A DNA stretch of 64,000 nt. It comes from Azolla caroliniana (Eukaryota > Plantae > Polypodiophyta). Every line of letters starts with the position of its first letter. Positions within the stretch are counted from its first letter, which is position 1. Shown in pieces: positions 204-47,110 of the stretch. The notes beneath the pieces are model-generated. The model worked only from the letters and a program-made list of their open reading frames with translations, had not been told where the DNA came from and ran no database searches. Made by a program: the position numbers and the translations under genes. The stretch lies in NCBI GenBank assembly GCA_043228905.1, contig JBHGNT010000006.1:6262001-6326000 (forward strand), written 5' to 3'.

Positions 204-3200
204 GGGTTATATTTGCAAATGAGTTCAAGGAAAAGAGGTTGAAGTCTTTATCTGCAAATCTTCATCGAATGGGTGTAACCAATACCATAGTTTGTAACTA
301 CGATGGACGGGAGGTTAGTTAACGCAAAAAATACTGTGCTCTTTTTAGCTATTGTTATGTGAAGGAAAAACAGTATCAAAAACAGTATCTATTCTTCTTC
401 TTCAGCTGCCAAAAGTTGTTGGGATAAACAGGGTGGATAGAATCTTGCTGGATGCACCTTGTAGTGGTACTGGGGTGAGTATTTGACGTGTTTTCTGAAT
501 TTGATTATTTGAATAATATAGTTGTTTTTCAAATTGTTTCAAAATTTGCATTTTGTTTTCCAGGTTGTAGCAAAGGACCAGTCTGTGAAGGTGTCAAAGG
601 GTGCATTGGACATTGAGAAGTGTGCAGCTCTTCAAAAGGTATAATATGTTTATTGTTGATGTACTGCTATCACTGATGTACACAGAAACATAAATTTCTG
701 AGTGTTTTTATTTGATACTGTGTTTATGAAGAAACCTATATAAAGATCTACGTATCTTGATCTTATTTACTTTGAAAGGTTTAAGTGGTTGTAATATCGT
801 AAGTGCCCTTCTCAAGATGTGAGAAGTTCTACGAAAAAGGAAAATAAGAAAAGCTTTTCTGCTCATGACACGCCCAATATGATTAATATCTATTTATCCT
901 GTTAAAAATCAAATCCGCAAGAGAGTGACTTTACCTATAGCACTGTTGATCCCATGATATCAATATTGCTCTTTTTCTCCTTTGCAAAATTGAACACCTT
1001 CTCTTCTTCTTTGGTTTGGGGTTTAGGCGCATGCTAGATCTCAACAAGATTTAGAAAGGGTAGCAGCCAGACAACTGTGTAGGGCTCCTTTCCACGGAGG
1101 CAATGAGTTAATTTACTCGTGTTTCTACTATTCTAGAGCCCACATTCTTGACAATCAATGCAACTCATTGTTTGTCCCAATAAACAGGGTGGGTTTCAAA
1201 GTGTTGGGAATAGCTTGTGTTTGTCTTAAGCAACCAACATGTGTGTTACTATTAGATGTGTAGGTGGATAATGAAAGGTTGAAGTGGTTGTAATATCGTA
1301 AGTGCTCTTCTCAAGATGTGAGAAGTTCTACGAAAAAGGAAAATAAGAAAAGCTTTTCTGCTCATGACACGCCGAATATGATTAATTTCTATTTATCCTG
1401 CTAAAAATCAAATCCGCAAGGGAGTGACTTTTACCTATAGCACTGTTGATCCCATGATATCAATATTGCTCTTTTTCTCCTCTTGCAAAATTGAACACCT
1501 TCTCTTCTTCTTTGGTTTGGGGTTTAGGCGCATGCTAGATCTCAACAAGATTTAGAAAGGGTAGCAGCCAGACAACTGTGTAGGGCTCCTTTCCACGGAG
1601 GCAATGAGTTAATTTACTCGTGTTTCTACTATTCTAGAGCCCACATTCTTGACAATCAATGCAACTCATTGTTTGTCCCAATAAACAGGGTGGGTTTCAA
1701 AGTGTTGGGAATAGCTTGTGTTTGTCTTAAGCAACCAACATGTGTGTTACTATTAGATGTGTAGGTGGATAATGAAAGGTTGAAGTGGTTGTAATATCGT
1801 AAGTGCTCTTCTCAAGATGTGAGAAGTTCTACGAAAAAGGAAAATAAGAAAAGCTTTTCTGCTCATGACACGCCGAATATGATTAATTTCTATTTATCCT
1901 GCTAAAAATCAAATCCGCAAGGGAGTGACTTTTACCTATAGCACTGTTGATCCCATGATATCAATATTGCTCTTTTTCTCCTCTTGCAAAATTGAACACC
2001 TTCTCTTCTTCTTTGGTTTGGGGTTTAGGCGCATGCTAGATCTCAACAAGATTTAGAAAGGGTAGCAGCCAGACAACTGTGTAGGGCTCCCTTCCACTGA
2101 GGCAATGAGTTAATTTACTCGTGTTTCTACTATTCTAGAGCCCACATTCTTGACAATCAATGCAACTCATTGTTTGTCCCAATAAACAGGGTGGGTTTCA
2201 AAGTGTTGGGAATAGCTTGTGTTTGTCTTAAGCAACCAACATGTGTGTTACTATTAGATGTGTAGATGGATAATGAAAGGTTGAAGTGGTTGTAATATCG
2301 TAAGTGCTCTTCCCAAGATGTGAGAAGTTCTACGAAAAAGGAAAATAAAAAAAGCTTTTCTGCTCATGACACGACGAATATGATTAATTTCTATTTATCC
2401 TGTTAAAAATCAAATCCGCAAAGGAGTGACTTTTACCTATAGCACTGTTGATCCCGTGATATCAATATTGCTCTTTTTCTCCTCTTGCAAAATTGAACAC
2501 CTTCTCTTCTTCTTTGGTTTGGGGTTTAGGCGCATGCTAGATCTCAACAAGATTTAGAAAGGGTAGCAGCCAGACAACTGTGTAGGGCTCCTTTCCACGG
2601 AGGCAATGAGTTATTTTACTCGTGTTTCTACTATTCTAGAGCCCACATTCTTGACAATCAATGCAACTCATTGTTTGTCCCGATAAACAGGGTGGGTTTC
2701 AAAGTGTTGGGAATAGCTTTTGTTTGTCTTAAGCAACCAACATGTGTTACTATCAGAGGTATAGATGGATAATAAATGTAAGTGTGAAGATCAAATGTGT
2801 TACTACCAAATGTGTAGATGGATAATAAATGTAAGTGTGAGATCAAATGTGTTACTACCAAATGTGTAGATGGATCATAAAAACCGCTCCAAGGCTCTTG
2901 CATAACAAAACGTGATCCATTCCCGAGTCATGATCCTAAAGTTAATATTCTTTGTTGCTATTATATTGTTGTTCTTTAGCACGGTCACTAGTGCTTTTGT
3001 TCCTCTCCAAATGTAGCCTGATTTCTGAACAAAACCTCACAGCTTAAATAAGAGGACAACCTTTCAATGCAAGAATTGGTTATGTACTGAAAGATCCACC
3101 AGATATATGTAGCTCTTAAAGTGTTTCCAAATGATTGAGACATATATAGGTTGAAACCAGAGGTTAGGATTTTGGCTCTAAACAACACACATAGCACGAT

Positions 3201-4317
3201 TTATCTTGATCAATAGCTAATACAGTCTGTAACATGCATACACATTAGAGTTTTGAGTATTTTAATGGCCATCAAGAACTGAATAAGTGGTGCTATTGAT
3301 GATATAATATTGATATATGCAGGAACTCATTCTAGCTGCTATTGATATGGTGGATGCGAATTCAAAATCAGGGGGCTATATTGTCTATTCAACATGCTCA
3401 ATTAATGTAGCAGAGGTTTGTTTCAATTGATTTGCCTGTGACTACTCTGATGCTAAATATATTAACCTGATGCGGTTTTTAAACTTCAAATTCAGAACGA
3501 GGCTGTGATTGATTATGCTCTTAAAAAGAGGGAGGTTAAAGTTGTTCCTTGTGGATTGGACTTTGGGAAACCAGGGTAAAATTCTGTTCTATTGATGTCA
3601 GCATTGTCATATTTACTGTCGTGTCTCATAGATGCTCTTATATCACAGATTTATTCGGTTTCGGGAACATCGGTTCCATACATCATTGTCGAATACCAGG
3701 CGTTTCTATCCTCATGTGCACAACTTGGATGGTTTTTTTGTTGCTAAGGTTTGTTTCTTGTCAATAATATAGAGGTTCCTTTTTTATGGCACCCAATTGG
3801 TTTCATAAACAGTTATTACTTACATTTAAACAGTTGAAGAAGATTAGTAATGCAAAACCTGCCCCAAAGACAAATGGTGATTCTGGAGACTCTGTTTCTG
3901 AGGTCATTGATGATGATGGATGTATGGCAAATGGCACTGCAGCTCATGTTGAGAAACTGGTAGAAGAATCTGTTGAAGATATAGAAGCAAAACAGAACAA
4001 GGTCTCTGGTATAAAAAGGCAGAAAGTAATGAGAAAAAACTTGAAACAACTGCCTTCTAAGGATGAAATATCAGAATTGAGGTACGTATAAGACCATCTG
4101 TTCTTGTTTTATTGTTGGAAGAAAGGAAAGCTTATTTATCTAGTTGTTATTCAGAGAGGAGAAGAGAAATGAGCTTCGTCTAAAACGGAAGAGCCAGATG
4201 ATGAATGACACATCAGAAAAACCTGATTCAGCCGTCAAAGTAGATAAGAAGAGCGTAGTAGCAAACGAAAATGAGCTTACCAAGAAGCGTGATAAAAAGC
4301 GCAAAAAAAACTCGTAA
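204..4317 (+). CDS. NOP2: 25S rRNA cytosine-C5 methyltransferase NOP2/NSUN1, 3' part (5' exons lie upstream of the window)
   Basis: GT-AG exons ~204-313, 406-474, 564-638, 3323-3415, 3496-3575, 3649-3748, 3834-4081, 4155-4317 splice in frame: [33 protein letters not shown] (motif IV PC), [10 protein letters not shown] (motif VI TC), [26 protein letters not shown], then a Lys-rich tail ending TAA 4315-4317. Confidence 0.95.
1012..1147 (+). ncRNA. Box H/ACA snoRNA (SNORA4/snR83-like, predicted 18S Psi guide), copy 1
   Basis: Hairpin, H box AGACAA (1069-1074), second hairpin (GGGCTC/GAGCCC lower stem), ACA (1142-1144) + 3 nt. Pocket strands TTCCAC and ACTA lie 15 nt from ACA and pair with 18S UAGU-Psi-G-GUGGAG. 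Same strand as the host gene; 5' end approximate. Confidence 0.8.
1513..1648 (+). ncRNA. Box H/ACA snoRNA copy 2
   Basis: H box 1570-1575, ACA 1643-1645; same structure as copy 1. Confidence 0.8.
2014..2149 (+). ncRNA. Box H/ACA snoRNA copy 3
   Basis: H box 2071-2076, ACA 2144-2146; variant CCCTTCCACT keeps the TTCCAC guide. Confidence 0.78.
2515..2650 (+). ncRNA. Box H/ACA snoRNA copy 4
   Basis: H box 2572-2577, ACA 2645-2647; guides intact. Confidence 0.78.
2740..2880. repeat. Short ~52-bp tandem repeat (~2.5 copies) at the end of the 501-bp array
   Basis: ATGTGTTACTACCAAATGTGTAGATGGATAATAAATGTAAGTGTGA repeated. Confidence 0.8.
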
Positions 4318-4604
4318 AGATATCTAAAGAAAGGCTACCAAGGGAGAGGCTACTCTTGACAGGGGACGACAAATCAACGTTTTGCCTGAATGTAACATAT
4401 TTGAGTGTTCACTTATTCTCTTTGTAAATGCCTAGCTACTTCTAAAGGAGTCTTGGTGTACTCCACTTTGTATGTGGAAGAGAATTTGAAGTTTTGATAC
4501 CCCTTATCATCTGTGTTGAAGCACCAATTAAGTCAATTGATTTATGAGTGTAATGCAAAAATATGCTATGCACTTTCTTACCGGGAAGAGTGAATTCATT
4601 AGAG

Positions 4605-8308: not shown

Positions 8309-11300
8309 TTATCTTTCCATGAGCATGACCACCTCACAATGAGGAGTATGTGGGAACATGTCAACTGCCACTGCCTTCATTGGACAAAAAGGAGTCGACA
8401 TGGGCATTGACTTAATACGCTGCCGAGCATGTCCCACCACTGTCCTCCTCTGAGGGCCTCTTTGGGAACCTCCCTTGACTTGATCTGCTGATCCAATAGG
8501 GGTGCAAAGCTCTACCGCATTCGCAAGTAATGTCTCAGGATTGCATGAAACATAGCTGTTACGCAACAATAGAATCCACCAGTCACATGATGACAAAACC
8601 AGATGGTAACCCTAGCTCAGGGTGAAACCAATATCACAAACAAATACTAGTTGGGTTACTTAAAAAATAAGGTAAAAAACACTCACACCAAACGACGAAT
8701 TCGTTCATGTGTTCTGAGAAGTTTCACCACCTATAATTACATTTACATGAAGATATGTTTCAAAACTAGCACAAAAATGAAAGTGAGAAGCAGTTGACTC
8801 TAACCAGAAACCTATGTTTTCTTACCACAGGATGAAGACCACTCCTTGGAGGATCTACTAGCACTACCACAGATGAAAATCTGTTTTCAGAACTGGAGGA
8901 AACCCCACTTTCGAGAGAGAAACTTGAATCTATGACATCTTTAGAAGGAACTCTTTCTGATTCTTCCACCAAATAATGTTCGAGCAGGTTCTTCATCACA
9001 TCTTCAGCCTGCAAAATTAATGTCTTTTATCATCAGTTACAATTTTTCTCAATTTAAATCTATGAGTAATGTCCATGAAATGCATATAGAAACCTCATAT
9101 AAGTACCTTTCCACACACAAACTTGCAGTTTTTGATACCATTGATTTCAGCATTAATGTGTGCGTCTGCAATCGCTGCTTCGTTCATTTCGATTCCTACA
9201 ACCTATATCAATGTAGTGAGCATGACAAAAAATTATCCATGTTCAGATATGAAAGAACAATGCATGATGGCATACTAAAAATAAACGCATTATGGTGAGA
9301 AATGATATATTACTGGAAATTACATCCATAACTCAGTGTAATGAAGTATAAGCATTCTTTTTTGGTCCATACTTACGTTTCATACAATGAAGTTATGAGT
9401 TTGCACTTCATCCGTTCAACATGCAGATACCATCATAATAATGCACACATGTAAGTCTGAGCAGAAAAACCTCATTTCACAGCTTTCATCATTCATTGGT
9501 GCACAAGCATTAATCGATATAATATGAAGCAACCCAGTATTTAAAATGGTTCTCTAAGGAAATTCTTAACACCATCTCTAAATGTATAGACCACTATATA
9601 TGCCCACTAAGGTAAAGGAAAAATTGTGATATGCGTTTGCTCATGTTCCAAATAATGGTGAAAAGCATATAACGATACACCAAACTTCTGTAGGAGGAAC
9701 TAGACCATACAAAACTTACCAATCAACAATAAATTATAAATACATTGAACATGGATGAAGATTTTTGCAGCCTCATTGTGCCCATGCATCTTTGTAATGC
9801 ATACTAATAAATACTACAATTCATGCAAGCCTTGCAATTCACATTCACATATGCTCTACATATTTTATAACTGTATGCGCTAGTGACCTTCAGAAAAGTC
9901 TGATGGATGCATATGCTTATCTATGTTCGAGGAGAGTACCATCCCAACTCTGTGAGCAAGAGTTAATCCAATGGTTCCAGTTCCACAACACACATCAAAA
10001 AGAAGAGTTTTTGCGTCAAGCCCAGCCCAATCGCCTGCCTGATTGTACAATTTCTCAGCAGCTGACGTATTAACCTAAATAGAAGTTTTGTGAACTATGA
10101 GAATTAGAGAAAACTAGAATACAGGAGAAAAGAATTAACAGAGAAAATATCAAGTAAAACCTAAAGCAAACAGAATAAACCTGGAAAAATGCTGTTGGTG
10201 AAATACGGAACTGGAGATTGCCTATACGATCATGTATGAAGCTAATTTCATTCTGCTTTTCCACCTGCTCTTTTCCGTCCTCCATTTGGGGAATCGAAAG
10301 TGAAATCAAGGGTGAATCAGGGCAGGCTGCATTAGAAATGCCCAGATGGTCCTAAGAATCCATACGAAGTAATATTCAGAAAATTAGTGACTGCAATTGA
10401 TGCATCAACTGATGGGTGAAACTGAGGTCCCACATGACCACCCATTGAATGAGAGAAAATTTAGGGTTCCAAATGAATGTAGTGGAAATAACCACCATAG
10501 CTGTTGCCTACAAGGTCATAACTGGGCCTCTCAAGTGACATAGTCAAGCTTTATTTTGACTCTTGGCTTTATAAGAAGATACCATGTTCGCAGAATATAG
10601 CAAACTAATTAACTGATAACTCCTGCAGAAATACCTGTACAAGTAGTGCTGAGAGCGGAAGTTTTGGGGATGCTTGAGATGCTGCTAATGCTAGATCATG
10701 AGCCATTCTATTATATTCTTTTGTTCTGACATTTTCGTCTACACCTGATGAGCAAACCTGCAGTTTTTTTCCAAACAATCAGAATTATGAAAAAACTCTG
10801 TTGATATCAGCTCAAATAGAAAACATTATTCTATACCAAGGATCCACCTTAGGAGTTCCAGATGATTGTGACAATAGCATACACATGAGTTTAAATGTTT
10901 AAAATTAGAAATATGCATGTCCACAATCAAAAGTGTAACAAACCTGCACCATCAGCATCACTTCACTAATGGCTGATGTATCGCTTGCTGCGCGGCCCTC
11001 ACGTACCTGCAAAATTCTACATATGTTATCCAGCTTTACAGTAAATGAATCAATATTCCCAAAGAAAATTCATTTGTAATTCCTATATCAAATACGTTAT
11101 TGCAACATGCATCATTTACATTCTTGAACTAAATAAAGCAAAATGAGGATTGCGTATGTGTCATATTGCTTCGGCAAATGTGGCAATATTGATATGATAT
11201 GAACTTAAATCAGTATGCAATAATATTCCTAACAAAAAATAGGAGATGTCAAAATTATTTAACCTGATGAAGTGCATTTTCATTTTAATTTTATTACGAG

Positions 11301-14300
11301 GTTATTGAGGAAAGGAGCATATTTCATTTTGAATTCATTGAGTTGGTAAAACTGCATGCCATAATTTTTCTCGTGTAGAAAAAATGAACACATAACCACT
11401 AAATATTGTTATTCCTATGGCTATCTCACTTGGAGATTTCTACGTAAGCTAGTTATGGATGAAGCTGTTTCATCAAGGTCTTATGTCTGCAACTGAGAAC
11501 CAAAGTAGGGAGTCTTTAGTTCGTGCTGTTATTTCTCATAAATTTCTCTTTACTTTAAGAAAAAAACTGCTGATACAGCTTCAATATACCCCCTTTAGTT
11601 ATTTCTATATAAGGAACAAAGAACCCTAATACTAACCATACCTCACCATTATAAATACTAGTATTCAAAATATAAAAGAAGTGTATTAATGAAAGTCTAA
11701 AGTTGATAACTAGTATGTTAAAAGTTGCTTTCATAGAAATGCACATTCACAAATAGTTTAAACAGTATCTACTGTGTAGAGATGTTTAAAATGCAAACAA
11801 ACGTGGCAGCAGATTCAAATGCTGCTTCTCAAATTACAATTTCAAAAGACACTGTAATGATACGGGCAGGTAGTCTCTTGTGAGTGCAACATTGGCACAG
11901 GTTTTAAGGAAATGAAAAATATTAATTGTGTCAAATCAAAATGCGAAATGTTAAATTGCTGAGATGGAAAACCAGATATTTTCTACAGAAAATTGACTTA
12001 CAGTGAATAGCCTCCAAAAGCCACTGTTTGTTTTCTTGTCCCAAACAGATAGCTCAGAACTCTCAATAAACTTCTGAAAAGCTTTCACATATGACTGAGC
12101 TATTACTGAGACATTTCGGCACTGGTCAGGCTCCTTTACAATATTGCACCCTTCCCTGTTTAACACCATGCCAGTGGCCAAAATGACCGATGAGACTGGA
12201 AAAAAGACTGCACCTTATAATGATGTCTCATCTTTGATATTAAATGCATCAATAAAATAGACACTCATCAGTGATTACTGATGCAATTTGAGTATTCATA
12301 AAAAAACAGGTTTTTTATTAGTTTAAAACAAGAATGAAAAAAGGTACAGATTTCCTCATAGGTAAGTGAGAACACATTATACACATAGACACATTAAAAA
12401 TATTACAAATACACATAAATTAAAAGAAGCTTTCTTAGATACAGATTTAACTGTTCTTAACCATGGTGAACTCAGTCACGACATGGGGGAAATACATACT
12501 ATTCACCCAGTTGAAAATCTTAAATACAAAAAATGGCAACTGGATGGTGCTCCTCATTCATAGTGCGAATGTGCATTTTAAACACACATTCTTTTTATGA
12601 AGTATATCTATCCCTGAATTCTTTCATTTTATCAAATCTGTATCTTGATGCAACCATATATGCTCCATAAAAACCAAGATCCTATTGAATTAGCCTCATT
12701 TTAAAACACATCAGGTGAATGAAAGCTTTAGACTATCATGACATTTAATGCCGCTTGAACTTAGGTCCAAATATATTACCTATTTGCAAAAATGTGTGAT
12801 CATTAAAAAAATTAAACAAGAAGCTACAGAAAATGAAGATAAAACAATGAGGAGACAGTGATTATGATTTACTTCATAATGCATGGTTCCTGCATTGCAC
12901 CTAAAACTCATCCCTCTTCTATTATTCACATAGGGTTGGCAAATACCATGACACTTAGATGCACTTCAACTGGCAAGAGAAGTAAGAAGAAAACAGAAAC
13001 GTTACACATTTCAGAAGCACTTCCCATCCTGTTTACAACTTTTATAGTGTCGATAAAGTATAAACTGCTGATACAATTCTCAAGCAACTGGAGAATAAAG
13101 ACAAAATACCTATGCTTTTCTGATTTACAAAATAGACTGACAAATAAGCATGAGTTAACAAACGCCCTTCTTATGAGGGTTCACTTCAACTTGAAAGAAC
13201 TCACAACAAATATCTACTGTGCCTTCCTATTGGCCTTCATATTTTATCATAAGCATCCAATAATACCTCAGCAGTTAACAAGAGAAAACAAGATGTGTAG
13301 CTGTTTGCATGCAGTATGCTGACCAAAATTCTCAGCATCTAGAGTATTAAAATAATTAAATTCTGAAATCTGAAGACATACCGAAAATTGCCAAGAAGAA
13401 ATCCCACCACCCTCTTTCCATCGGACGAATGACCAATTGTGAATTCACATTTATTACGATATCCATCAACAATAGGTGAAGGAATGATACCATCAAAAGG
13501 GCAGCACATGCCTCCTGAAAAATGATAAAGTTAAGTTGACATGGAACCTGGAAGAGGCTTTAAAAAGTGTTTGTGTTTATGATGCAAGCATGAGTCACAG
13601 TTCAATAAAAACAGTCATTCATTAATGCACATGAGAGATGGACCAAATAAATTGAGAATACAAATTATTGGAAACTATTATGTATTTATTAATCATCTGC
13701 TCCCTAACCTTGAAATTTTGCATCAATAACCCATTGTGGAAGCGAAACACCTGGAGATATTGCTTTTCGAACATTGCGCACCTACAAGTATACTTCAACA
13801 GTTAAGAAAGCTGTTCCATCCAAATAAAAAAAGTGATCTTTTACACAAGCATTGGACTAACCAGCTTTTTGAGAAGGTGCGATATTTCACTGCTTTTTTG
13901 GTCAAGTTGTTGTTGGTAAGGCAACTTAGCAAGAGGAGTAACAGCATCACATATATCTGATATTTTGGTGTTACCTTCAATATCAACATTGATGGAGGAA
14001 TTGGCGTTTTCCCTCTCCCAGGCCCGGGGCAAAGCATCTTCCATTTTCAGCATCTTAGAATTCACCAATAAGCCATCAAGTGTCTACAATAAAAAAGATA
14101 ACATCAAGTGGCATATTATAGTAACATAAATTCTCGATGTCACCTCTAAAAGTAAAATTGAATTTCAAAATGATGTTACATTATATGCATTGAATCTCAC
14201 TTTTCTCTACCTGCTTGGCTAGGGCTATGTGCTCATCACTTTCAAATTCTACGAAACCCACAGATGAACGAGGCCTTTTCCTTGATGATCGAAATGAAAT

Positions 14301-14882
14301 TCCCTGCAAATGAGAGGGTCACATATACTGAAAAGTGGAAAGTGTGCAAAACAATGGAAGAAAGAGGTGTGAAGAAGAAGAACCAACATTTTCTGCGAGA
14401 AGCTTATCAAGGTCTTCCGAGCTCCACTTGAGAGGGAGGTCAAGGATGCACTTTTGAAGAGGGTTAGCTACACTCTCTACATTCTGTACAGTTTCCATGG
14501 CTGATTGCTTGAGAGAAGAAATACTGGCCTCGGCACGAGCTACAGAAGAGGTGGGATCCCATGAACCATCAGGCCGGCGCCTGAGCTCACATTCTGCATG
14601 AGCATACCTGCAGCTCTCCCCATGCCTACACATACCAGCTTTCCTAAAGTAGGAGCACAGGCTGCTCTTGAAGAAAGGGTCTTCTTTATCTTTCTCTTTC
14701 TTCTCTTTCTCCTCCTCCTTCTCTACAACCTCTGTTCCACAGCTATCACTATCCAACAGGCCTTTCTTCGGCACCATTGCATCTGCCGTTCCCTCATCAC
14801 CTGCACTGCACATGCTGTTACTGTTCTTCTTATCGCTTTCCATCTCAAACTTAGTTATGCTGCTGCTGCAGAGACTTTCCAT
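8309..14882 (-). CDS. TRM2A: CCCH zinc finger + RRM-like + tRNA (uracil-5)-methyltransferase (TRM2A/TRMT2A homolog, zinc finger CCCH domain protein 24 type)
   Basis: About 14 GT-AG exons, ATG 14882, TAA 8309. CCCH (LCSYFRKAGMCRHGESCRYAH), GYRNKCEFTIG, FRISPTAFFQVNT, SAM motif LFDVCCGTGTIGL, VGIEMN, VDPPRSGLHP, YVSCNPETL, AVDMFPHTPHCE. Confidence 0.94.
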
Positions 14883-16056
14883 GGCCACAACACAGAGCAG
14901 AGCAAATCAAAGTGTTTGTGTTTGTGTTTGTTTCTTTGTGTGTGTGTGTGCGCACATGGATACTCTCTACATAAGAGTTTGGGGTTTTTCCTTCAACGAG
15001 AAAGTAAGCAAGTACATACATACATAGAGGTTCCGAAAGATCGTGATTGCTTCGGCTTCTTCCCCACTAAGGAGAGAGGATCGATTGGTCACCATGCAGT
15101 TGCAATTCAATGCCCATATGGTCCGGTGGTCACACACTTGTTGACTTGACCGACTGATAGCACCCCAAATTAGAACCCATCTTATATGAAGCATGGCCTC
15201 CATTTACACTGTAGCATGGTGGTCTTATGACCCCATGGTTCAACAGTCACCCTCATGTTGACTTGACAAACATGACCTAGACTAGATTCCATCTTATGAC
15301 ACACTTCCTCACTCTATACACTACTCCATTCGGCTCTCCTCCTCCTCCGTCGCCGCCTCTCTCTCTCTCTCTCTCCCTCACTATTAGGACATAATTCCTT
15401 AAGTTGATCCCTCCTATGCACAACCGTCTCTTAACATACCTATATTAACACACAACCCAATAACCAATTTGTTTATGCTTAACACCATACATAATACAAA
15501 GGGTCGTGCTCTTATAGTAAATGCTCGCACCCTTACAACTTGCAACACCACCCAAACTGTATGGGGTTCTCTCTTACATTTAGCCTATGTCTTGCTCTCT
15601 CTTTTATGGGTTTATGAATGATGCTCTCTTTTGATGATTTTGAGACCATTATCACTAATCAATTTATATTCCTCTATTTTAATCAACTTCCATTGCACAT
15701 TCTTATAAAAGTGTAGGTTCAATTTCCTCTAGTGCTCTTCAATCCTACATGCAATAAGGTTTTTGTGCCTACGCTATTTTGTTATTAAGAGTTGAACAAA
15801 ATGGATATTAATCTCTATATTCTACATCACAATATGAAGAGTCAATGCTTTACTAAGTTATTATGCAACTTGTAATTATCGTGTGAAGATCCATGGATAA
15901 TAATCAAAGTGATGGTATAATGATTGTGTGAGGTGAAATCTCTCATAATTAGCTTACCTTAACGGTGGGTTGTTACACTATTAGCATTACATATTGGGTT
16001 CGAAAACTAATTATCTCACCTCTATTACTCCATACATATATCTTAATTTACTAGAT

Positions 16057-16130
16057 GCCCCTGTCAAAAGTAGGGGTTGAACACATCACCTTTTGGTCTC
16101 CATTGGGAAACCTTACCAACTAAGCTCCCT
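16057..16130 (-). mobile_element. tRNA-derived SINE head or tRNA pseudogene
   Basis: Minus strand reads GGGAGCTTAGTTGGTAAGG (A-box-like) ... AAAGGTGATGTGTTCAACCCC (B-box-like) at tRNA spacing; the cloverleaf is degenerate. Confidence 0.45.
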
Positions 16131-16598
16131 CTCACATGCCGTTGGCCCATTTACTTGATCTGCCCCTACTAGATCTACCCATAAAAGATTTGTAAATACA
16201 ATACCATACAACATAAAATCTCATTTGAGGCCTCACTCTTGTCATTGTGAGGTCAAAATGATATTTCATTTCAAACATTTTTCGCTGTTCTGAACCAATC
16301 TTAGTATTCATTGAAAGTTCATAAACAATCTTAGAACATAAGCACTATTTAACATGATGTAAAGCAAGGGATGTTCAAGATGAGATTTGCTCAAATTTTA
16401 ATATCAACAGACAATGAAGCATGTAAATACTATTTAACAACGGTATAAAGCAAGGGAGTTTTGAGATAATATTTGCTTTAAATCATTATTTTAATATGAA
16501 CAGAACATGAAGTCAATCTTGTTGAATCTGGGATAGAACTGCAGGTCGACAAGAGTTCTTGCTGCTGCATTAAGAAGGCATGCATATCAGGTTTATAA

Positions 16599-16806
16599 TC
16601 AAACTTGGATGCCACACACCAGATTCGCAGGTACAGCCACATCAAACATCTTCGGATATGGCAATCCTAAATCTGAAAGCGATAAGTAAAGATAGAAATA
16701 ATGTCAAATTACTTGGCAAACAAAACACCGACCTTAATCAGATATAAAATACTCAATACTTACTGTTCATTATGTTTTTATATGTTTCCTGGAACAAGAA
16801 ATAATG

Positions 16807-16855
<49 letters not shown>

Positions 16856-19800
16856 AGACAGGCAGTTTTTAGACGACCAGACGACCACTCTTTATCATAA
16901 ATCCTAACTTTGTTCTGCATTGCCTCATTGATGGTGCAGAAGCGAGGAAAAAGAGGTTATTTTGAGCCTTTAATACAATACCACACAAGAGGCTCTTTCA
17001 TTGCCTCAAATGATTGGGGCTACCCTAAGAGATTATTTTGGCCAAGATCTATATGACAAGTGACAGGTAGAGTGTATATAATGCCCGAAAGCCTGTTAAA
17101 ACCCATTGCTAGCACCATTGATGTGAATCAAGCATTTCCTCTCTATTTGATGCTTTTTGGACTCTTGCATCGGAAGAATGCAGATCCTTTTCCTGATTAC
17201 AGTACCTACCCTGGCAAGTAACTAATTTATCATTATAAATAAAGTTATCTGAGTTGTTGATGGATACACAGATTAAGGCATTACAAAAACTTACCCATGT
17301 TCTCCTACAATGCATTGTGCAACCTGGCTATTTAGAGGATTTCTAATATAGTTTATGTTCTCCAGTACAATGTTCAAGCTTTTATTTTGAGCAAGATTGT
17401 ATAGATACCTCATCTTTTGTTAGTCGGGGGTTGTACACAGATTCTTCCCCCACTGTTGTCACCTGGAAGATGGGATCAACAAATGAGAAATTATAAAATA
17501 TTGGAAATTATGGGAAAGAATTGACTATATGAACAATGATGCAGAGGTCTACATTTCATCTACAGCTACAAAAATCTATTTCCCAAACTGAAACTTGTCA
17601 TATTGACTGAGGTAAATAATTTTTGCCATATATACTTTATATAAATGGTTTCTTCACTGCAGCAACAATGATTTTGATGGTGATACTGATAGATTTTGAA
17701 AACAAACGAAGTTCTTACAGAGAATCCCTTGTAATCATGTGCAGGATAAATAAGGGTGTCCTTTGGTAATGTGAAGATCTGTACAGAAAAAAAAACAAGA
17801 TAATGCTCAATAAAAATCAACAAGACACGAGAAAATCATTTATAAAGAATAAAAAAGTTCAATACTGAATATTGGAGAATAAAGACCATGGTTTTTATTG
17901 AAGGATCTGTTAATATCCTTTAGCTTGTGACTTAAAACTATTGTATTTGAAATTCCCTCCTAAATTCTCTTCAGTATAGCTGGAAATATATAATCTAGGG
18001 CAAAGCTCATGGCTTCACCAGTTCCCTCACATTTCTTGAGTCCACTGATACATAGCATAGCTACAAACTAATAATTACTGCATGCTTATGAAAAATCAGG
18101 TTTGGGTTTATCGTATTTCCTTAAACTTGTTATTCTCGGAAAAAATAAAGCCCTACCTTCACAGAGTAATTTTAACTTGGCATTTATTGACATGTATCAG
18201 TGTAGTGAAAGCCACAGGAAATTGCACGCATACAAGGTAGAAGAAGATCAAGGAAGGTGTGAGGGTTCAAAGCAAGCAGCAAACAAAAATATAAATATAA
18301 GATTTAAGTTTTCATGGTCAAATGTGTATTGTTTATTGTAGATTAAGATAGATGGATGAACAATGATATTTATAAGAGATCTTTTTCGTATTGACAGAGG
18401 TTATGGTTATGCACATGATGAGAACTGTGTATATAAATATTTGTAAAATATAAATATAAATATGAGGTAGACGAAGTTCAAGGGTTCCACAGATACTTGG
18501 ATGGTGTAAGGGTCAAAGCAAGCACCAAAACAAATATAAATATAAGACTGAAGTCTTCATTTTTTCAATAAATGTGTATCGTTTATCCTAGATTAAGATA
18601 GATGGATGAATAATTATATTTGTAAGAATTAATTTTTTACGTATTGTCCAGAGGTTATGGGTATGCACATGATGAGAATTGAGTGGATTTGGTGCTTTAA
18701 TGCATTTCCAAAAGTAAATCTTGTATCTATAATATCTCCCTGCTTGAATTTAGTGCTTGGATGCAAGGGCTGAGTTCAAGGTGATGTGATGATCAACAAA
18801 ATATTCACGGTTTGCAACTGTGCCACAAAATTACTCAAGGAAATAAAAGCATAACAAAAGGATAAGTATAGGTCAAGGCAACACAGAACTTGGAGCTGCG
18901 ATTATAGGTTCACGTATCCATGCATGTCTTCTTTCTTGCACTCATGACTCGTGTCCTTGTAACATATGCTCTCATAAATTGCCAATAGTAAAAGACTTCA
19001 CAAAACATTACGAAGCTTTTAAAAAATGTAAATAGCCCAAAAAAATCTTAAGCAAATAAAAATAAACTGCTCAGTTCCAACCTGAGAATGAACCGACTTA
19101 TAAAGTTGGCCTGCATCACCTCCCTGAAATAAATTGAATAAAAAAATTATTTTGAAGTAAACGAAACTACAAAATATTCATTCTTACTATTGGAATTTTG
19201 TAATGGCCATACTTGGAAATCAGTTCTCCCACATCCACGAATAAGGAGGGCATCTCCGGTAAATGCCATTCTTGGATTTGGCTGTTCAGCTCCATCATCA
19301 GTTACATATGTAACACAACCTGCAGTGTGTCCAGGTGTTGCTCGGACCTGCAATGAGCATATAAAGACCATTACTGCCGCTGTTGGTAAAGAGGTACATG
19401 TTTTTTATTCCAAGGCTAATTTCATCTAGTACTGTTCTTGTCAACAGCTTTATCTGCATGACGTCTTCCATGCTTCCAAGGCTTGCAACCTAAAATTCCT
19501 AATAGAACAACCAAAGAAAACCTATTCATGGGACACGTTTCCTGGGTGAATTCCGAAACAATTATTGCTGCAGTGCACCCATTCCTACTGCAATTCAGCT
19601 TATCGACTACTCTGTCACGAGTTTTTCTAATCTCACAGAAAGCCATGCACACAAACTTTCAGATGGATCAATAATGTTCAGATAATCCAACATAGAGCAT
19701 ATGATTGTACAAACTTCTGCAATAGGAAATCTATGATTTCTTTATGCTGGTAACTATCAATGCAAACATGCTTTGAACCATTCCAAATAGCACCAAAATT

Positions 19801-28380: not shown

Positions 28381-31300
28381 ATGGAGGCAAACACATCGAC
28401 AATGGTTGTTTTAAATGGCACGAACTATCAAAAATGGAAAGGAAAAATGAAAGATTTGCTTTTCGTTAAAAATATGCATTTACCTATATTCGCAAAGATT
28501 AAACCCGAAAAGAAAAATGATGAGGAATGGGATTTTGAAAATGAACAAGTATGTGGTTTCATTCGTCAATGGGTAGGAGATAATGTCTTGAATCATGTTG
28601 TGAATGAAACAAATGCAAAGACTTTGTGGAATAAATTAGAAACCTTATATGCTTCTAGAACCGGTAATAATAAGTTGTTTTTACTCAAACAAGCGATACA
28701 TTTGACTTATAAAGAAAATAAGTCGGTTTTAGATCATTTAAATGAATTTCAAGGATGTTTTGATCAATTTTCTAGCATGGGTATAAACTTTGAAGAAGAA
28801 GTTCTTTCTTTATGGTTGCTAAATACTCTTCTCGAGTCATGGGAAACATTTAGGGTTACTCTAGCTAGTGCGGCTCCTAAGGGAGGTATGACAATGGAAC
28901 TTGTGAAGAGTGGAATTCTAAATGAAGAAATGCGGCGAAGGACGCAAGGAGCAACATCAAACATGGAAGCCTTCGTTGCTGAGAATAGAGGAAGAAGCCA
29001 AAAGAGGAGTGATGACCGAAACAACAAAGGTAGAAGTAGAAGTAAGTCAAAGTCTAAATATAAAGATTTAGTTTGTCATTTTTGTGGTAAGACAGGTCAC
29101 ATAAAGAAATATTGTTTCAAATGGAAGAAGGAAAATAAAGTGTCGAACTACATGAAAGATAAGAAAAATGTGAATGACAATATCGATCTTGTTAATGTTG
29201 CTTCCTCTAATGATTTACTTGTTGTATGTACAAGTTACAATGAAGTTAACATAAGTAGCCATGAAACCACTTGGGTTCTTAATAGTGGTGCTTCCCACCA
29301 TGTTACGTCTAGAAGGGATTTTTTCTCATCTTACACTCCAGGTGACTATGGTGTTGTGAAGATGGGGAATGATGGATTTGCAAAGGTAGTCGGCACAGGA
29401 ACCATTTGCTTGCAAACCAACACGGGATTCAAGTTGATTCTACATCAAGTACGACACGTGCCGGATATTAGATTGGATCTAATCTCCACAGGTACATTAG
29501 ACGACGAGGGCTATAACCATGCGTCTCAAAATGGTAAGTGGAAAATCTGTAAGGGTTCTTTGATTGTTGCGAAAGCAAATAAATGTTGTCACAATGGTTT
29601 ATATCTTTTGCAAGCTTCTGTCTCTACTAACTTTGTCAATGCAGTTGAAAATCAAGATGTTTCAAAATTTTGGCATAAGAGATTGTCCCATATTAGTGAA
29701 AAGGGACTTGACTTTCTAGCAAAAAAGAACGTCCTACCAGGTTTAAAAGATGTGAAGTTAGATACATGTGATCATTGTTTGGCAGGGAAGGCTAAGAGGG
29801 TTTCCTTTAAGCATTCTTCTCTTCGACAAAAAGGTATACTCGAGCTAGTGCATTCTGATGTGTGTGGACCCTTGAAGGTAAGGTCAATGGGTGGAGCACT
29901 TTATTTTGTTACTTTCATTGATGATCATTCTAGGAAGCTTTGGGTTCGAATGTTGAAATCAAAAGATCAAGTTTTTGATGTTTTTAAAGAGTTTCACGTT
30001 TCTGTTGAGAGAGAGACAGGGAAGAAACTGAAATGTATTCGCAGCGATAATGGTGGCGAATACTGTGGATCTTTTGATGCGTATTGTCGAGAGCAAGGTA
30101 TCAAACATCAAAGAACCCCTCCTAAGACTCCCCAATTAAATGGTTTGGCCGAAAGAATGAATAGAACCCTAGTTGAAAGAGTTAGGTGCTTACTTTCAGA
30201 TGCAAGGTTACCTAAATCATTTTGGGGTGAGGCTTTGAATACTGTTGCGCATATCATTAATCTATCTCCTACTACCGCATTGCAAGGTGATGTACCAAAT
30301 AGAGTGTGGTATGGTAAAGATGTCTCTTATGATTACTTACGTGTGTTTGGGTGTAAGTGTTTTGTACATATACCCAAGGATGAAAGATCAAAGTTAGATG
30401 CTAAATCTAAACAATGCATTTTTATTGGATATGGTTAAGATGATTTTGGTTATAGGTGTTACGATCCTGTGGGAAAGAAGCTTATTAGGAGTCGTGATGT
30501 AGTGTTCATCGAAGACCAAACCATTGAGGACATTGACAAGGCGGAAAGGTCAAGTACCTCTTCAGATGGTGACCTAGTAGATATTGATCCAATTCCTATG
30601 ATGGATGATGATACACAAGAGAGTGCCTCGCAACAAGAGGAGCAACATGAGGATGTTGGTGAGCCGTTGATTGTAGATGATGCTAGTAATGATGTTGTTT
30701 TGCCAGAGACAAGTCTTGAGCGGGGGGAGCAACTTCCATTACAAGAGGTGGCAAATCAACCTTTAAGGAGATCTACAAGAGAATGACGATCATCCACGAG
30801 GTATCCTAGTTCTGAATATGTTCTACTCACTAATGAAGGTGAACCGGAAAGTTTTCATGATGTGCAAACTCTTAAAGACAAAGATAGTTGGGTAGAGGCC
30901 ATGCATGAAGAAATTAATTCTTTGAAAAAGAACAACACATTTGAGCTAGTTGAACTTCCTAAGGGTAGGAGAGCTTTGAAAAATAAATGGGTGTTTAAGT
31001 TAAAAAGGGGTGATGATAACTTTATAAAATATAAAGCCCGTTTGGTGGTAAAAGGATATGGTCAAAAGAAAGGAATTGATTTTGACGAAATTTTCTCACC
31101 AGTTGTTAAATTAAGCTCAATACGAGTTGTGTTAGGTTTGGTAGCTAGTTTAAACCTTGAACTTGAACAATTAGATGTGAAAACTACTTTTTTACATGGT
31201 GACCTAGATGAGGAAATATACATGGAACAACCGGAGGGTTTTAAAGAGAAAGGGAAAGAACATTTGGTATGTAGGTTGAAAAAGAGTCTCTATGGCCTAA

Positions 31301-32780
31301 AACAAGCACCGCGCCAATGGTATAAAAAGTTTGATTCTTTTATGGTGAATCAAGGTTATAAAAGAACTAATGCGGACCATTGTGTGTATGTTAAACAATT
31401 TGAGGATGGTAATTTTATTATACTTCTTTTGTATGTTGATGATATGCTAATTGTTGGGCAAGACCTAAATATGATTAATAGGTTAAAAGTGGAGTTATCT
31501 AAAACTTTTGACATGAAAGATTTAGGGCCTTCTAAGCACATTTTAGGTATGCAAATAACTCGTGATAGAGAATCAAAGAAATTGTGGCTTTCACAAGAAA
31601 CGTACATAGAAAGAATCCTCGAAAGGTTCAACATGCAATATTCGAAACCAGTAAGTACTCCTCTTGCCACTCACTTTAAATTGAGTAGGAAATGTTGTCC
31701 AATTATCGAGGAGGAAAGAGATGAGATGTCATCGATTCCCTATGCCTCGGCGGTTGGATCTTTAATGTATGCTATGGTTAGCACACGACCAGATATTGCA
31801 CATGCAGTTGGTACAGTGAGTAGGTATCTCTCTAACCCTGGTAAATCTCATTGGAATGCCGTAAAATGGATTTTACGGTATTTGAGAGGTACATCTAAGT
31901 TGTGCATTTGTTTTGGAGGTTCTAAACCAATTCTTGAAGGCTTTACAGATGCGGACATGGCTGGAGATCTTGATGGTAGGAAACGTACATAGAAAGAATC
32001 CTCGAAAGGTTCAACATGCAATATTCGAAACCAGTAAGTACTCCTCTTGCCACTCACTTTAAATTGAGTAGGAAATGTTGTCCAATTATCGAGGAGGAAA
32101 GAGATGAGATGTCATCGATTCCCTATGCCTCGGCGGTTGGATCTTTAATGTATGCTATGGTTAGCACACGACCAGATATTGCACATGCAGTTGGTACAGT
32201 GAGTAGGTATCTCTCTAACCCTGGTAAATCTCATTGGAATGCCGTAAAATGGATTTTACGGTATTTGAGAGGTACATCTAAGTTGTGCATTTGTTTTGGA
32301 GGTTCTAAACCAATTCTTGAAGGCTTTACAGATGCGGACATGGCTGGAGATCTTGATGGTAGGAAATCTACATCCGGTTTCTTATTTACTTTTGCAGGGG
32401 GAGCTATATCATGGCAATCCAAATTGCAAAAGTGTGTTGCCTTGTCCACTACAGAAGCTGAATACATTGCAGCAACTGAGGCTGGCAAAGAAATGCTTTG
32501 GATGAAAAGGTTTCTTTTAGAATTGGGTTTGAGCCAATTAACTTATGTGGATTTTTGTGATAGTCAAAGTGCAATGGACCTAAGCAAGAACTCAATGTAT
32601 CACTCACGGACAAAACACATCGATGTAAGGTATCATTGGTTACGATTGGCGATCGAGGAGCAAATGTTGCAACTAGATAAAGTTCATACTGATGACAACG
32701 TTGCTGACATGCTAACAAAGGTGGTTCCAAGGGAGAAGCTTGAGCTATGTGCTAAGCTTGCCGGAATGGAGATAAATTGA
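28381..32780 (+). pseudogene. Copia gag-pol polyprotein (gag, Zn knuckle, protease, integrase, RT, RNase H), disrupted
   Basis: CHFCGKTGHIKKYC, WVLNSGAS (catalytic D>N), LVHSDVCGP, IRSDNGGEY, LLLYVDDML, FTDADMAG, STTEAEY. Stops at 30436 and 30784; 383-bp internal duplication causes a frameshift. Confidence 0.96.
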
Positions 32781-43708: not shown

Positions 43709-46365
43709 CTATCTGTGCGAAGCAGAAGAAGAGCGTGGCTTCTTCAGTCTCCACGATGTGCGACCGCGGAGGATCTCTGTCGTGTCGTCTTGAAGACGGA
43801 GCAGGTGCGTGAAATGGATCATGGGTGGCTTCCCCTTGTTCATGTTAATCTGATGATCCACTGTGCCATTAGAGTTGTTAACTGTACTAACTGAGCTACT
43901 AGCAGATGTGGTATTGGTGCAGGCTGCTGATTGCTGCTGCAGATCTGCCACTTCCACTTTGTGTTCTGCTGCTGCCTGTAGCTCTTCCACGAAATGTCCT
44001 GCGAGGTCTTCGGGATTGTCAGGCGATGCCAAAGACGAGAGCACATCGGAGTGATTGCACTCTCGCCTGTACTCCAATGTCATGCCCATCAATTCATGTG
44101 CCACCAGAAAAGACTGCGGAATACTCTGTTCCATTGATCACAGCACATAGCATTTTTCTTGTATTAATATTCATGAGTACTGCTCAACATTACATAACCT
44201 AATCATTAATCCAGTTCATCAGAGAACTTTAATAATTACCTCCAAAACCCAGCTGATGTATTTCACGTGGTTTACATGTTGATTCATGTCCATGTCGTGA
44301 AGCCTGGGCTGTAGCACATCCAGATTAAGGATAGATTATCAGCCTACGGATATAACTAGACCTAGATTTTAACATGCAACAGATCAAAAGGCTTGAATGA
44401 ACAATTTATACATACTGCGAGACCCGATCTGATGTAAGGGGCGGAGTTGTCGAGCTTCGTAATCCGCTGGCAAGTATATACTTCCGACTCATCTTTGGTG
44501 TCATTGTTAATCATTACGCTTCTTTCAATGAAGTAGGGTGATATCTCTGCACGAACATCATCTGGCATCTTCGATAGCCTTCGTGTATCTTGATTCATCA
44601 TGGCCCAATGGCTGAATACCATCAGCAGCAAGAGCAGCAAGTGAGTTCCTTATATAGGTTCTTAATTAATCTTGAACTTTCAGTATATATGGATGTTGAT
44701 AAAATTGGTATAAGTGAGTTACTTATACAGGTTCTTAATGACTATTGATCTTTCAGTATATATGGATGTTGATAACATAGATGCATTTTGTACGATGATT
44801 ATATGTTAGCTAGCTATTAGTAATTCTAGAGAAGATTAATACCTGGTTGCTCTTGCTCTGATATGGCCGGTTAGGTAATCCCTCACTAAGAAGTCCCGGC
44901 GCATACCGTTCTTTCCTGATCCACTCACCCATGAATCGATCTCCACCACATCGCCCCTGTGAAAATTATATCGATCAATTTAGAGAGTTGAGTGGCGTAG
45001 AGAAAAGGAAGCTATATTAATGTGTGGTATATTGGTGAAGATTACAGATAAAATGAAGGATAAACATAAAAGGCATTTATTAATCGATACAGTGAAGATT
45101 AATTATGACAAAGCGAATTGGTATTTAAGGGGGTTCCGGAAGCGAATTGATATTTAAGGCATGACTACTAAAGGGAGCCAATAACAAGGGCAGGCATTTC
45201 GGATAGACTCGATCGAATAAATTAGTTCACTACACAAGACAGGGGGGATTAGGCTGATAGATATGGAAAATAATGGCTTTCGTAGTAGTAGTAGTATACC
45301 AGACAGGATAATCCACGGCTTCGATGTGCATTTTGGTGACAACCCAAATGAGCCTACTCCTCATCATGGCATGGGTTGTTCCCATGCCATCGCCCACAAA
45401 ATCCGCCATTCCCACATGATTCAGAGCTGTTTCCTGAGAGACAGGGAGATCAACGGATGAGTTACATATAATTCACAATACTCACAAGTATACTATACTA
45501 TATACCATTGGGATTTTGGTTGAAGAAAGGCCAATTCTCATCAAAATTATACCTGGAAGAGATTGGCCAGGGTTTCGATGGAGGCAGTGCGATCGAAGCC
45601 CACTTCATACGAACGGATCACGAACGTCTGCCGGTAAACGCATCCGTTCTCGACGAGCCTACCTCTGCGGAGTGAGTCGATGGACACAGCAGGTAGCATC
45701 CCCACGGCGGGCACATGAGATGATGATGATGGCACAGTGCCGCCAGCTTGTTGGGACTGGCCACTACCCGTTGCCACTAATTCTGCAGCCGATGATGCAG
45801 TGGAAGCATGATTAGTACTGCTGCTACTAATGTTGGTGGAGGTGGAGGAATTGAGGTGGTGGATCTTCTTGGGGCTGAGTAGGCTCTCCTTGTGGTGATG
45901 GGGCCCGCCCACGGCGGACAGAATGGCGGCCACAATGACGCCCAGGATGGCCACGGTCCGCTGCAAATGTGTGGATTCGGTGTCGTTGATTATGAGAGCG
46001 ATGACGGTGGGCGCGGCAATGGTGGTGGCCGGCTCATGATGGTCATCACTGGAGGAGGTGTGGAGAATCAGCTGGCTAGCTGGTGGGGATTGATGGGCAG
46101 GATCGATCGTGATGGGATGTGGCCGTCCATTTACGCCATTTATACGGGGAGAGCCCCCCGAGGCCGCACCATTGCCGGAGTTATGGAAGCCGGCTTGGCT
46201 TACGACCGTCCGAGTGGTGTTAGCCTTGTTTAGTGTATGCAGGCGAGTCCTGCCGCGGTGCAGAGCGCGAGCTAAGCGGAGCCCCTTCCCCTCGGGGGAC
46301 TTGACAGTTGGAATCCCCACGGATGATCTTTGATGATTAAGATGTAAGTGCCCAAGGCGCTGCAT
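43709..46365 (-). CDS. FATB: Plastid acyl-ACP thioesterase (FatB/FatC-type)
   Basis: Exons 46365-45553, 45433-45300, 44956-44843, 44611-44416, 44308-44240, 44125-43709: YRQTFVIRSYEVG, QETALNHV, LIWVVTKM, SGKNGMRRD, TRRLSKMP, DMDMNQHVN, LEYRREC, EILRGRTSW; N-terminal transit peptide and hydrophobic stretch. Subclade assignment uncertain. Confidence 0.93.
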
Positions 46366-47110
46366 GGTGGTGATGTGATCGATCGATCGATGGAACCCCC
46401 CCTTCCCCCTCGAATCGAAAGCCAGTCTCTATTTATAGTCGCTATTTAATTCGTTTAACTGATCGTGAAGGTATTATGAATGACAGCTTAGATTCCTAAG
46501 GCTACGATTGTACTGAATGCATACAGAGAGAGTCTTCGTCCTTTCTTCTTTGCTTCGATGCGGATCTGCGGCATAGCCGGAGTGTGCGGTTGCAAATTGG
46601 CCGAAGTGCAAGAGACCTGGGTGTCTGTGTATAATTATATGCATACATATGCATATGTGCAGGAAGGAGGTGAAGAAAGGAAGGAGATGAAGGGTAGTTG
46701 GTGTATAGTAGTAGTTACAGTAGTAGTAGTAGTAGTAGTAGTAGTAGCAATGTGTTGGTTAAGGGCGGGAATTGGAAGGGAATTGGGGAGGGAGGGGGGG
46801 TGTGATATAAGGGGGGGAAAAGCTGTGTTTTGTTTGGGTCTGTGCTGGTGGCCAGCTCATTCTGTTCTCTTTATTTTCGTATGGCAATGATCCCAAAATG
46901 AAGCTCCATATATGATGATATATGTGTCGAGAGAGAAAGTGCCGGCTTCCAGGCAAATAAAAGGGAGGGCATCCATCAATCAAGCCCATTAAAGGCAGAG
47001 AAAGAGAGAGGAGGGGGGGTGGTGCAGCTATAATATTAATTAAGCACACACAGACATATTACACACACACTTATATTACGCTCTATTAATGAGAGATACT
47101 TTTAGCGTCC

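Follow-up and report, generated by a model that had tools for sequence, protein, structure and literature searches.

Genes for snoRNAs are known in introns, in Pol II or Pol III units and in dicistrons with tRNAs, and H/ACA RNAs follow a rule by which the target lies 14-16 nt from the box. The 45S rDNA spacers of plants are known to have received insertions of 5S genes and retroelements, and 5S has its own Pol III promoter. Plant snoRNA clusters, intronic or tandem, were described in ribosome-biogenesis genes (PMC2685112, accessible part), and in the same part of that report Chen and Wu predicted U2 Psi38 as the target of Arabidopsis snoR143 and found an RNA of 171 nt by northern analysis. Human SNORA4 and yeast snR83 share one 18S site, of which the yeast Psi1290 is guided by snR83 (PMC5699541, accessible part). 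The uridine that tobacco ribosomes carry as Psi1293 aligns with human 1347 and yeast 1290 (PMC10281867, supplementary tables 6 and 7), and the same site is listed there as "not detected" in Arabidopsis. Accessory antisense elements, in which extra pairing near the target may aid modification, were described mostly for C/D RNAs (PMC8522698, accessible part).

The locus described here, in a 64,000-nt stretch of Azolla caroliniana DNA (the window), resembles the plant clusters in its class of host and its tandem duplication, and differs from them in four near-identical copies of one RNA, long spacers and independent duplication in relatives. In the favored reading, to which a probability of about 0.75 is given, each unit of an intronic array carries a snoR143 homologue predicted for 18S, and a paralogue sits in the 45S spacer of a relative and likely also of the window's species. 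The array itself is a variant of a known snoRNA family, and the interest rests on the rDNA paralogue and on 18S, together with an accessory loop, as the likely new target assignment of snoR143. A search of the literature for snoRNA genes in rDNA spacers or in ferns found no report by title or abstract, with most subscription journals outside its coverage.

The NOP2 intron and its 501-bp array

The exons that flank the array belong to NOP2 (Table 1). Their translations matched yeast and human NOP2 of the PDB with E values of 6e-8 to 4e-7, and Pfam Methyltr_RsmB-F was found in three of the four exons tested; a homologue search with the divergent NOP2 tail found none. Contigs of two sequencing runs, X6 and X8, connect all NOP2 exons and omit 639-3322, so that the array lies inside a spliced GT..AG intron and NOP2 stands as the host, as had been proposed from the sequence alone. 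The RNA labels of sequencing runs, including those of X6 and X8, are guesses, contig depth does not equal copy number, and run X1 is possibly the source of the window itself. A weak Rfam match to the C/D RNA DdR4 was noticed at 670-777.

Table 1. Features of the NOP2 locus (positions in the window)
Feature	Position	Strand	Remark
NOP2 upstream exons	204-313, 406-474, 564-638	+	gene start lies before the window
NOP2 host intron	639-3322	+	GT..AG ends; absent from spliced contigs of runs X6 and X8
Four tandem 501-bp units	774-2773	+	head to tail
snoR143-like RNA, copy 1	917-1147	+	predicted 5' end; 5' hairpin weaker
snoR143-like RNA, copy 2	1416-1648	+	~233 nt; 5' end predicted by homology
Copy 2, 5' hairpin	1416-1486	+	z -3.33
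Copy 2, A-rich linker	1487-1496	+	candidate variant H box, by linker comparison
Copy 2, middle hairpin	1497-1562	+	by folding; long (short in Arabidopsis snoR143)
Copy 2, small hairpin	1564-1579	+	loop CCAGACAA at 1568-1575, including AGACAA; antisense to 18S immediately 3' of the target site
Copy 2, guide hairpin	1583-1648	+	pocket strands 1591-1596 and 1628-1631; ACA 1643-1645
snoR143-like RNA, copy 3	1917-2149	+	first upper-stem pair lost; guide strands intact
snoR143-like RNA, copy 4	2418-2650	+	
52-bp minisatellite, 2.7 copies	2742-2881	+	similar to the final part of the 501-bp unit
NOP2 downstream exons	3323-4318	+	through the stop codon

The four units, each with one RNA as the sequence-only reading had described, start at 774, 1273, 1774 and 2275; relative to unit 2 as reference, the other three are 98.4, 99.4 and 97.0% identical. 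The period of 501 bp lies just above the limit of 500 in TRF, which therefore overlooked the array, and a search of the 64-kb window for additional unit copies found none. An assembly artefact is an unlikely source of the array, as private changes distinguish the units and an X1 contig spans a junction at 2225-2343 with zero differences; array contigs reach two to three times single-copy depth, and the copy number of four is therefore not confirmed. Variable columns among the units number 8 of 233 within the RNA and 16 of 268 outside it (p=0.21), so that selection within the array is not shown. Another hairpin of the unit, at 1296-1335 (z -2.75), was considered as a further snoRNA and rejected, being broken in the orthologous intron of a close relative (L007; z -1.13), and its counterpart is absent from the second unit of L007 and from the rDNA spacer described below.

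The orthologous intron in relatives, which had been named as a check, was found in L007, where the NOP2 intron keeps two RNA copies with a period of 317 and different breakpoints. In run X3, a joint of 1168 to 1386 implies a unit of ~299 bp, and the whole predicted RNA is included in all three fern units (window, L007 and X3). NOP2 as host is lineage-specific as judged from the loci compared, since NOP2 exons occurred in one of 72 loci, L007, many of the loci being short; one copy (L023) sits in an RPS3 intron, and pairs or degenerate arrays exist in other plants as well. The claim of a recent tandem amplification was borne out, yet tandem copies recur across plants, and the NOP2 array alone is therefore fairly ordinary. 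Unequal crossing-over would have produced the intronic arrays, at least twice independently, and the repeated amplification of one guide may hint at selection for dose.

Long snoR143 runs with many degenerate copies, from some of which the loop, or the greater part of the guide hairpin, is missing, were seen in L004, L006, L012, L034, L041 and L054. At L002:4721-5790, a snoR143 core shares its strand with the C/D RNA snoR44/J54, ~880 nt upstream of it, and an ARID-domain exon lies nearby. In other parts of the window, Copia-like retroelement reading frames occupy 28381-32780, within which 383 bp are duplicated in tandem (31597-32373), a first exon of an acyl-ACP thioesterase lies at 45547-46428 on the minus strand with its best named hits in Ceratopteris and Adiantum proteins, which places the host among ferns, and a minus-strand frame at 14319-14906 holds, by eye, a CCCH zinc-finger-like motif.

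Anatomy and family of the RNA

Fourteen folded copies share one order of parts, namely a 5' hairpin, an A-rich linker, a middle hairpin of variable length, a small hairpin, the guide hairpin and ACA, which by sequence and conservation follows the guide hairpin three bases before the predicted 3' end. In Arabidopsis, the published snoR143 has the homologous 5' hairpin at its very start, and with that hairpin at the head of copy 2 the window RNA is likely ~233 nt long rather than the ~136 nt first read from the sequence. The 3' hairpin folds as that reading had it (z -3.85). Across a named structure of 14 pairs, 94.7% of cells are paired against 35.7-47.5% in slid controls, and nine of the 14 pairs changed on both sides. 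The guides had been described as preserved in all four units; the strands are intact in four of four, while unit 3 lacks the first pair of the upper stem and the 5' hairpin of unit 1 is weaker. In X6, the sole intronic contig runs from 1478 to 1639 without differences and with adapter behind it, at a depth of 61 against 22 for NOP2 mRNA; it may speak for a discrete RNA, though for one that would fit 171 nt without the 5' hairpin and not ~233 nt. The RNA would be cut from the NOP2 pre-mRNA and trimmed down to ~233 nt.

An H/ACA RNA had been proposed, with SNORA4, snR83 and plant H/ACA models named for comparison, and the class was sustained, whereas the family appears to be snoR143 and not SNORA4 proper. 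With Rfam, which had been suggested as a check, a scan of the 64-kb window at gathering level found nothing; the four copies reach 23.3-24.1 bits on snoR143 (RF01432, gathering cut-off 50) and 23.0-23.7 bits on SNORA4 (RF00394, cut-off 56), the latter with the 3' hairpin only, so both models match weakly and below their cut-offs. Rfam gave no snoR143 match on L007 or on L061, the spacer of a close relative (none at E 5 for L061). A pattern scan of metagenome contigs yielded 68 loci. Seven loci (L010, L016, L020 and L069-L072) were dropped as chance matches, and the others together with the window gave 45 distinct cores. Since all but one of the eight loop letters, as well as the strands TCCAC and CTACTA, had been preset by the search pattern, invariance of these letters among the loci is partly built in, and that of the pocket counts solely through the independent Rfam consensus lines.

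Among 14 loci submitted to Rfam, eight carry snoR143 above the cut-off, and L038 holds the published Arabidopsis snoR143 sequence (a supplement row of PMC2685112, accessible part). A model was built from 22 cores of non-fern plants, with Arabidopsis snoR143 included and 13 of that kind passing Rfam; it scored the window copies at 52-58 bits, L007 at 55 and L061 at 51.5, whereas no higher score than 13.6 was reached among five chance loci. A viral scan with the family pattern produced four hits, all by chance, and a scan of bacterial genomes none. By these scores the window RNA is a long, divergent homologue of snoR143, a variant below the curated threshold and not a member. It shares with Arabidopsis snoR143 the order of parts, a homologous 3' core and frequent tandem pairs, and differs in its predicted length (~233 against 171 nt), its middle hairpin (~66 against ~14 nt), its pocket (6+4 against 5+5), its predicted target (18S against the published U2 Psi38) and its hosts, NOP2 here and rDNA in L061. 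SNORA4 has similar pocket strands in its Rfam consensus and the same 18S site, but its model is 141 nt long and the window RNA scores 23 bits where 56 are needed.

The predicted 18S target and the accessory loop

In each of the four units, the pocket strands UUCCAC and ACUA pair over 6+4 bp with a fetched 18S fragment (L086) at a distance of 15 nt from ACA, and the pocket and target first proposed are thereby confirmed on the sequence level, the target being the site of tobacco Psi1293. Among the 45 distinct cores, 44 pair over 6+4 or 5+5 bp and one over 6+5, and in 43 of 45 the target lies 14-15 nt from the box; the fern group has 6+4 bp at 15 nt, most other plants 5+5 bp at 14 nt. The window RNA is thus predicted to guide pseudouridylation of the 18S uridine of yeast 1290 and human 1347, and its 3' pocket would clamp 18S on either side of the target U.

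The loop CCAGACAA was found in 45 of 45 cores (seven of its eight letters were set by the search pattern). In the eight rows compared, it is complementary to an 18S stretch that lies four bases beyond the guide duplex on its 3' side, the match covering 8 bp and two further G-U pairs being possible. Its closing pair among 27 is G-C in 16, A-U in 10 and G-U in one. The loop is likely an accessory guide, which in binding 18S would open a local rRNA hairpin drawn in the Rfam alignment. As in the accessory elements of C/D RNAs, extra pairing adjoining the target may help modification; here, it belongs to a hairpin loop of an H/ACA RNA and overlaps an H-box-like word. That the loop might supply one side of a second pocket, directed at 18S Psi1304, was rejected, as inspection of the cores revealed no conserved partner strand, and no target was assigned to the 5' hairpin, whose pocket is not conserved. 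In L045:580-661 and L050:542-623, a second tandem copy carries the loop CCGGACAA, which keeps the 18S pairing through G-U pairs and breaks ANANNA.

Two other readings bear on this part of the RNA. AGACAA had been taken for the plain hinge H box, and in that case the RNA would be a two-domain H/ACA RNA that measures ~171 nt from near 1478, and the match of the loop to 18S would be due to chance. AGACAA does fit ANANNA, the X6 contig starts at 1478, and the linker behind the 5' hairpin reads AAAUUG in the window, which is not ANANNA, whereas the linker of L061 fits. Yet AGACAA lies inside an 8-nt loop, antisense to 18S, whose closing stem covaries; the Arabidopsis RNA begins at the homologous 5' hairpin, the likeness between spacer and intron copies extends over that hairpin, and all three fern duplications include it, which leaves this reading a minor but real probability. 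An RNA for U2, either as a scaRNA for Psi38 or as a dual 18S/U2 guide, is more improbable still. It has the published prediction for Arabidopsis snoR143 behind it (PMC2685112, accessible part), and the 18S site was not detected in that plant. The strands ACAGA or ACGGA together with CUAC can pair with the branch-point-recognition sequence of U2 in a shifted register, and AGA follows the 5' strand in most cores. In the fern, however, that register would place the target 17 nt from ACA, beyond the 14-16 nt rule, and a U in the third position, as 8 of 45 cores have it, would break it; in Arabidopsis copy 2 and in L002, both sides of that third-position pair changed and the stem of the 18S register was retained. 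The U2 reading also leaves the 18S-complementary loop unexplained. No U2 gene was among 52 viral hits to a short motif, and the text and supplements of PMC8351944 do not name snoR143.

The copy inside the 45S rDNA spacer

L061, from a close relative and with a coverage of 884 in its record name, holds a full 45S spacer from the 25S 3' end (1-152) to the 18S start at 2742. On the rRNA strand, ~120 nt behind 25S, lies an RNA copy at about 276-504 (core 417-504), followed by 16 copies of a 44-bp subrepeat before 18S, so that 25S end, RNA copy, subrepeats and 18S start stand in this order on one strand. BLAST likeness to the NOP2 intron is ~80% and limited to 294-502 of L061. The guide strands, the loop and ACA are intact and the middle hairpin is near perfect (z -7.8), with one pair of the guide lower stem broken (z -1.18). 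The location of this copy in the rDNA of its organism is highly probable. Two diverged spacer repeats of 324-329 bp occur at 1287-1767 of the 2787-nt record, and a 5S gene was sought in the L061 spacer and not found. Like 5S and retroelement insertions, the copy would be a foreign RNA gene amplified with the rDNA unit; in contrast to 5S, it lies on the rRNA strand as a guide of the processing type, and its predicted target is in rRNA from its own unit.

For the window's species, the DNA runs X1 and X3 carry the window's NOP2 gene at a depth of 12-19 and a paralogue ~90% alike at 9,000-16,000. In X1, the paralogue contigs have depths of 12,961 and 16,207, the 25S end 13,522 and the single-copy flank 17.5-18.6, which puts the paralogue at ~700-870 times single copy. 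An X1 high-depth variant, found without the pattern, has nine of its 11 differences listed, none of which touches the 5' guide strand or the loop, and the 3' strand is retained in its loose end; in a spacer-type copy at a loose end of X3, another sequence takes the place of the 5' guide strand. The high-depth family, homologous to 1437-1669 of the window, comprises at least two variants: that of X8 is 96% like the NOP2 copy with 21 nt of intron flank, and those of X1 and X3 differ in the middle hairpin and the guide-hairpin loop. The presence of both may be due to recurrent exchange of the repeat with the intron, or to transcription that is selective.

A copy in the rDNA of the window's species is probable by these depths. 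The paralogue could instead belong to another repeat, a satellite or transposon, a rather unlikely reading for which it speaks that X1 has no contig bridging 25S and the RNA, and that the long X8 contig (830 nt, extending ~600 nt upstream) lacks the 25S end. The X1 paralogue did not align to L061 at 80% likeness. X8 contigs did not align to L061, including its 25S end, a null that can be false. Against another repeat, paralogue and 25S end agree in depth in X1, and the guide-hairpin loop of the paralogue is closer to that of L061 than to that of the window. In X14 and X16, moreover, a piece of 25S is connected with the RNA, by contig 9 of X14 (at a distance of 411 letters) and by a joint of X16, both at single-copy depth. 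A stronger rival, with nearly an even chance, is that the spacer copy is a passenger spread by concerted evolution without a working snoRNP, the NOP2 copies alone being active. The broken lower-stem pair of L061 and the replaced guide strand of X3 fit a passenger, as do the hitch-hiking 5S genes of plant spacers and X6, which has the NOP2-type RNA only. In X14 and X16, no high-depth copy aligned to L061 at the 80% threshold, depth over the RNA being 130-580 against 16,000-19,000 over 25S. A passenger is harder to reconcile with a likeness that, at ~20% divergence, ends at the RNA boundaries, with the near-perfect middle hairpin of L061, and with listed differences of the X1 variant that spare the loop and the 5' guide strand. 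The related 830-nt contig of X8 also has a depth of 6,622 against 73 for NOP2 mRNA, while other NOP2 introns are uncovered. A working product from the spacer copy is accordingly given an even chance at best. Contigs of X14 and X16 over L061:385-504 have a depth of 130-145 (~7 times single copy), which suggests that two other organisms carry larger low-copy arrays.

One copy would have entered the rDNA spacer, concerted evolution would have spread it, and Pol I read-through with cleavage of the 3' ETS would release it. RTL2 cleaves the plant 3' ETS co-transcriptionally (PMC13030585, accessible part), and therefore an entry point for releasing a spacer RNA would exist. It is tentatively proposed, at somewhat less than an even chance, that in this fern lineage the rDNA unit encodes one of its own guides, in hundreds of 3'-spacer copies made by Pol I along with each pre-rRNA and freed by 3' ETS cleavage, which would pseudouridylate 18S with the aid of a second antisense loop.

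In conclusion, the RNA is a candidate guide for plant 18S Psi1293, which suggests that the assignment of snoR143 to U2 is wrong or incomplete, and its loop appears to be an accessory antisense element, here within an H/ACA RNA. If the rDNA copy is productive, it would show that an H/ACA RNP can arise from Pol I transcription, and the supply of the guide would be tied one-to-one to rRNA synthesis.
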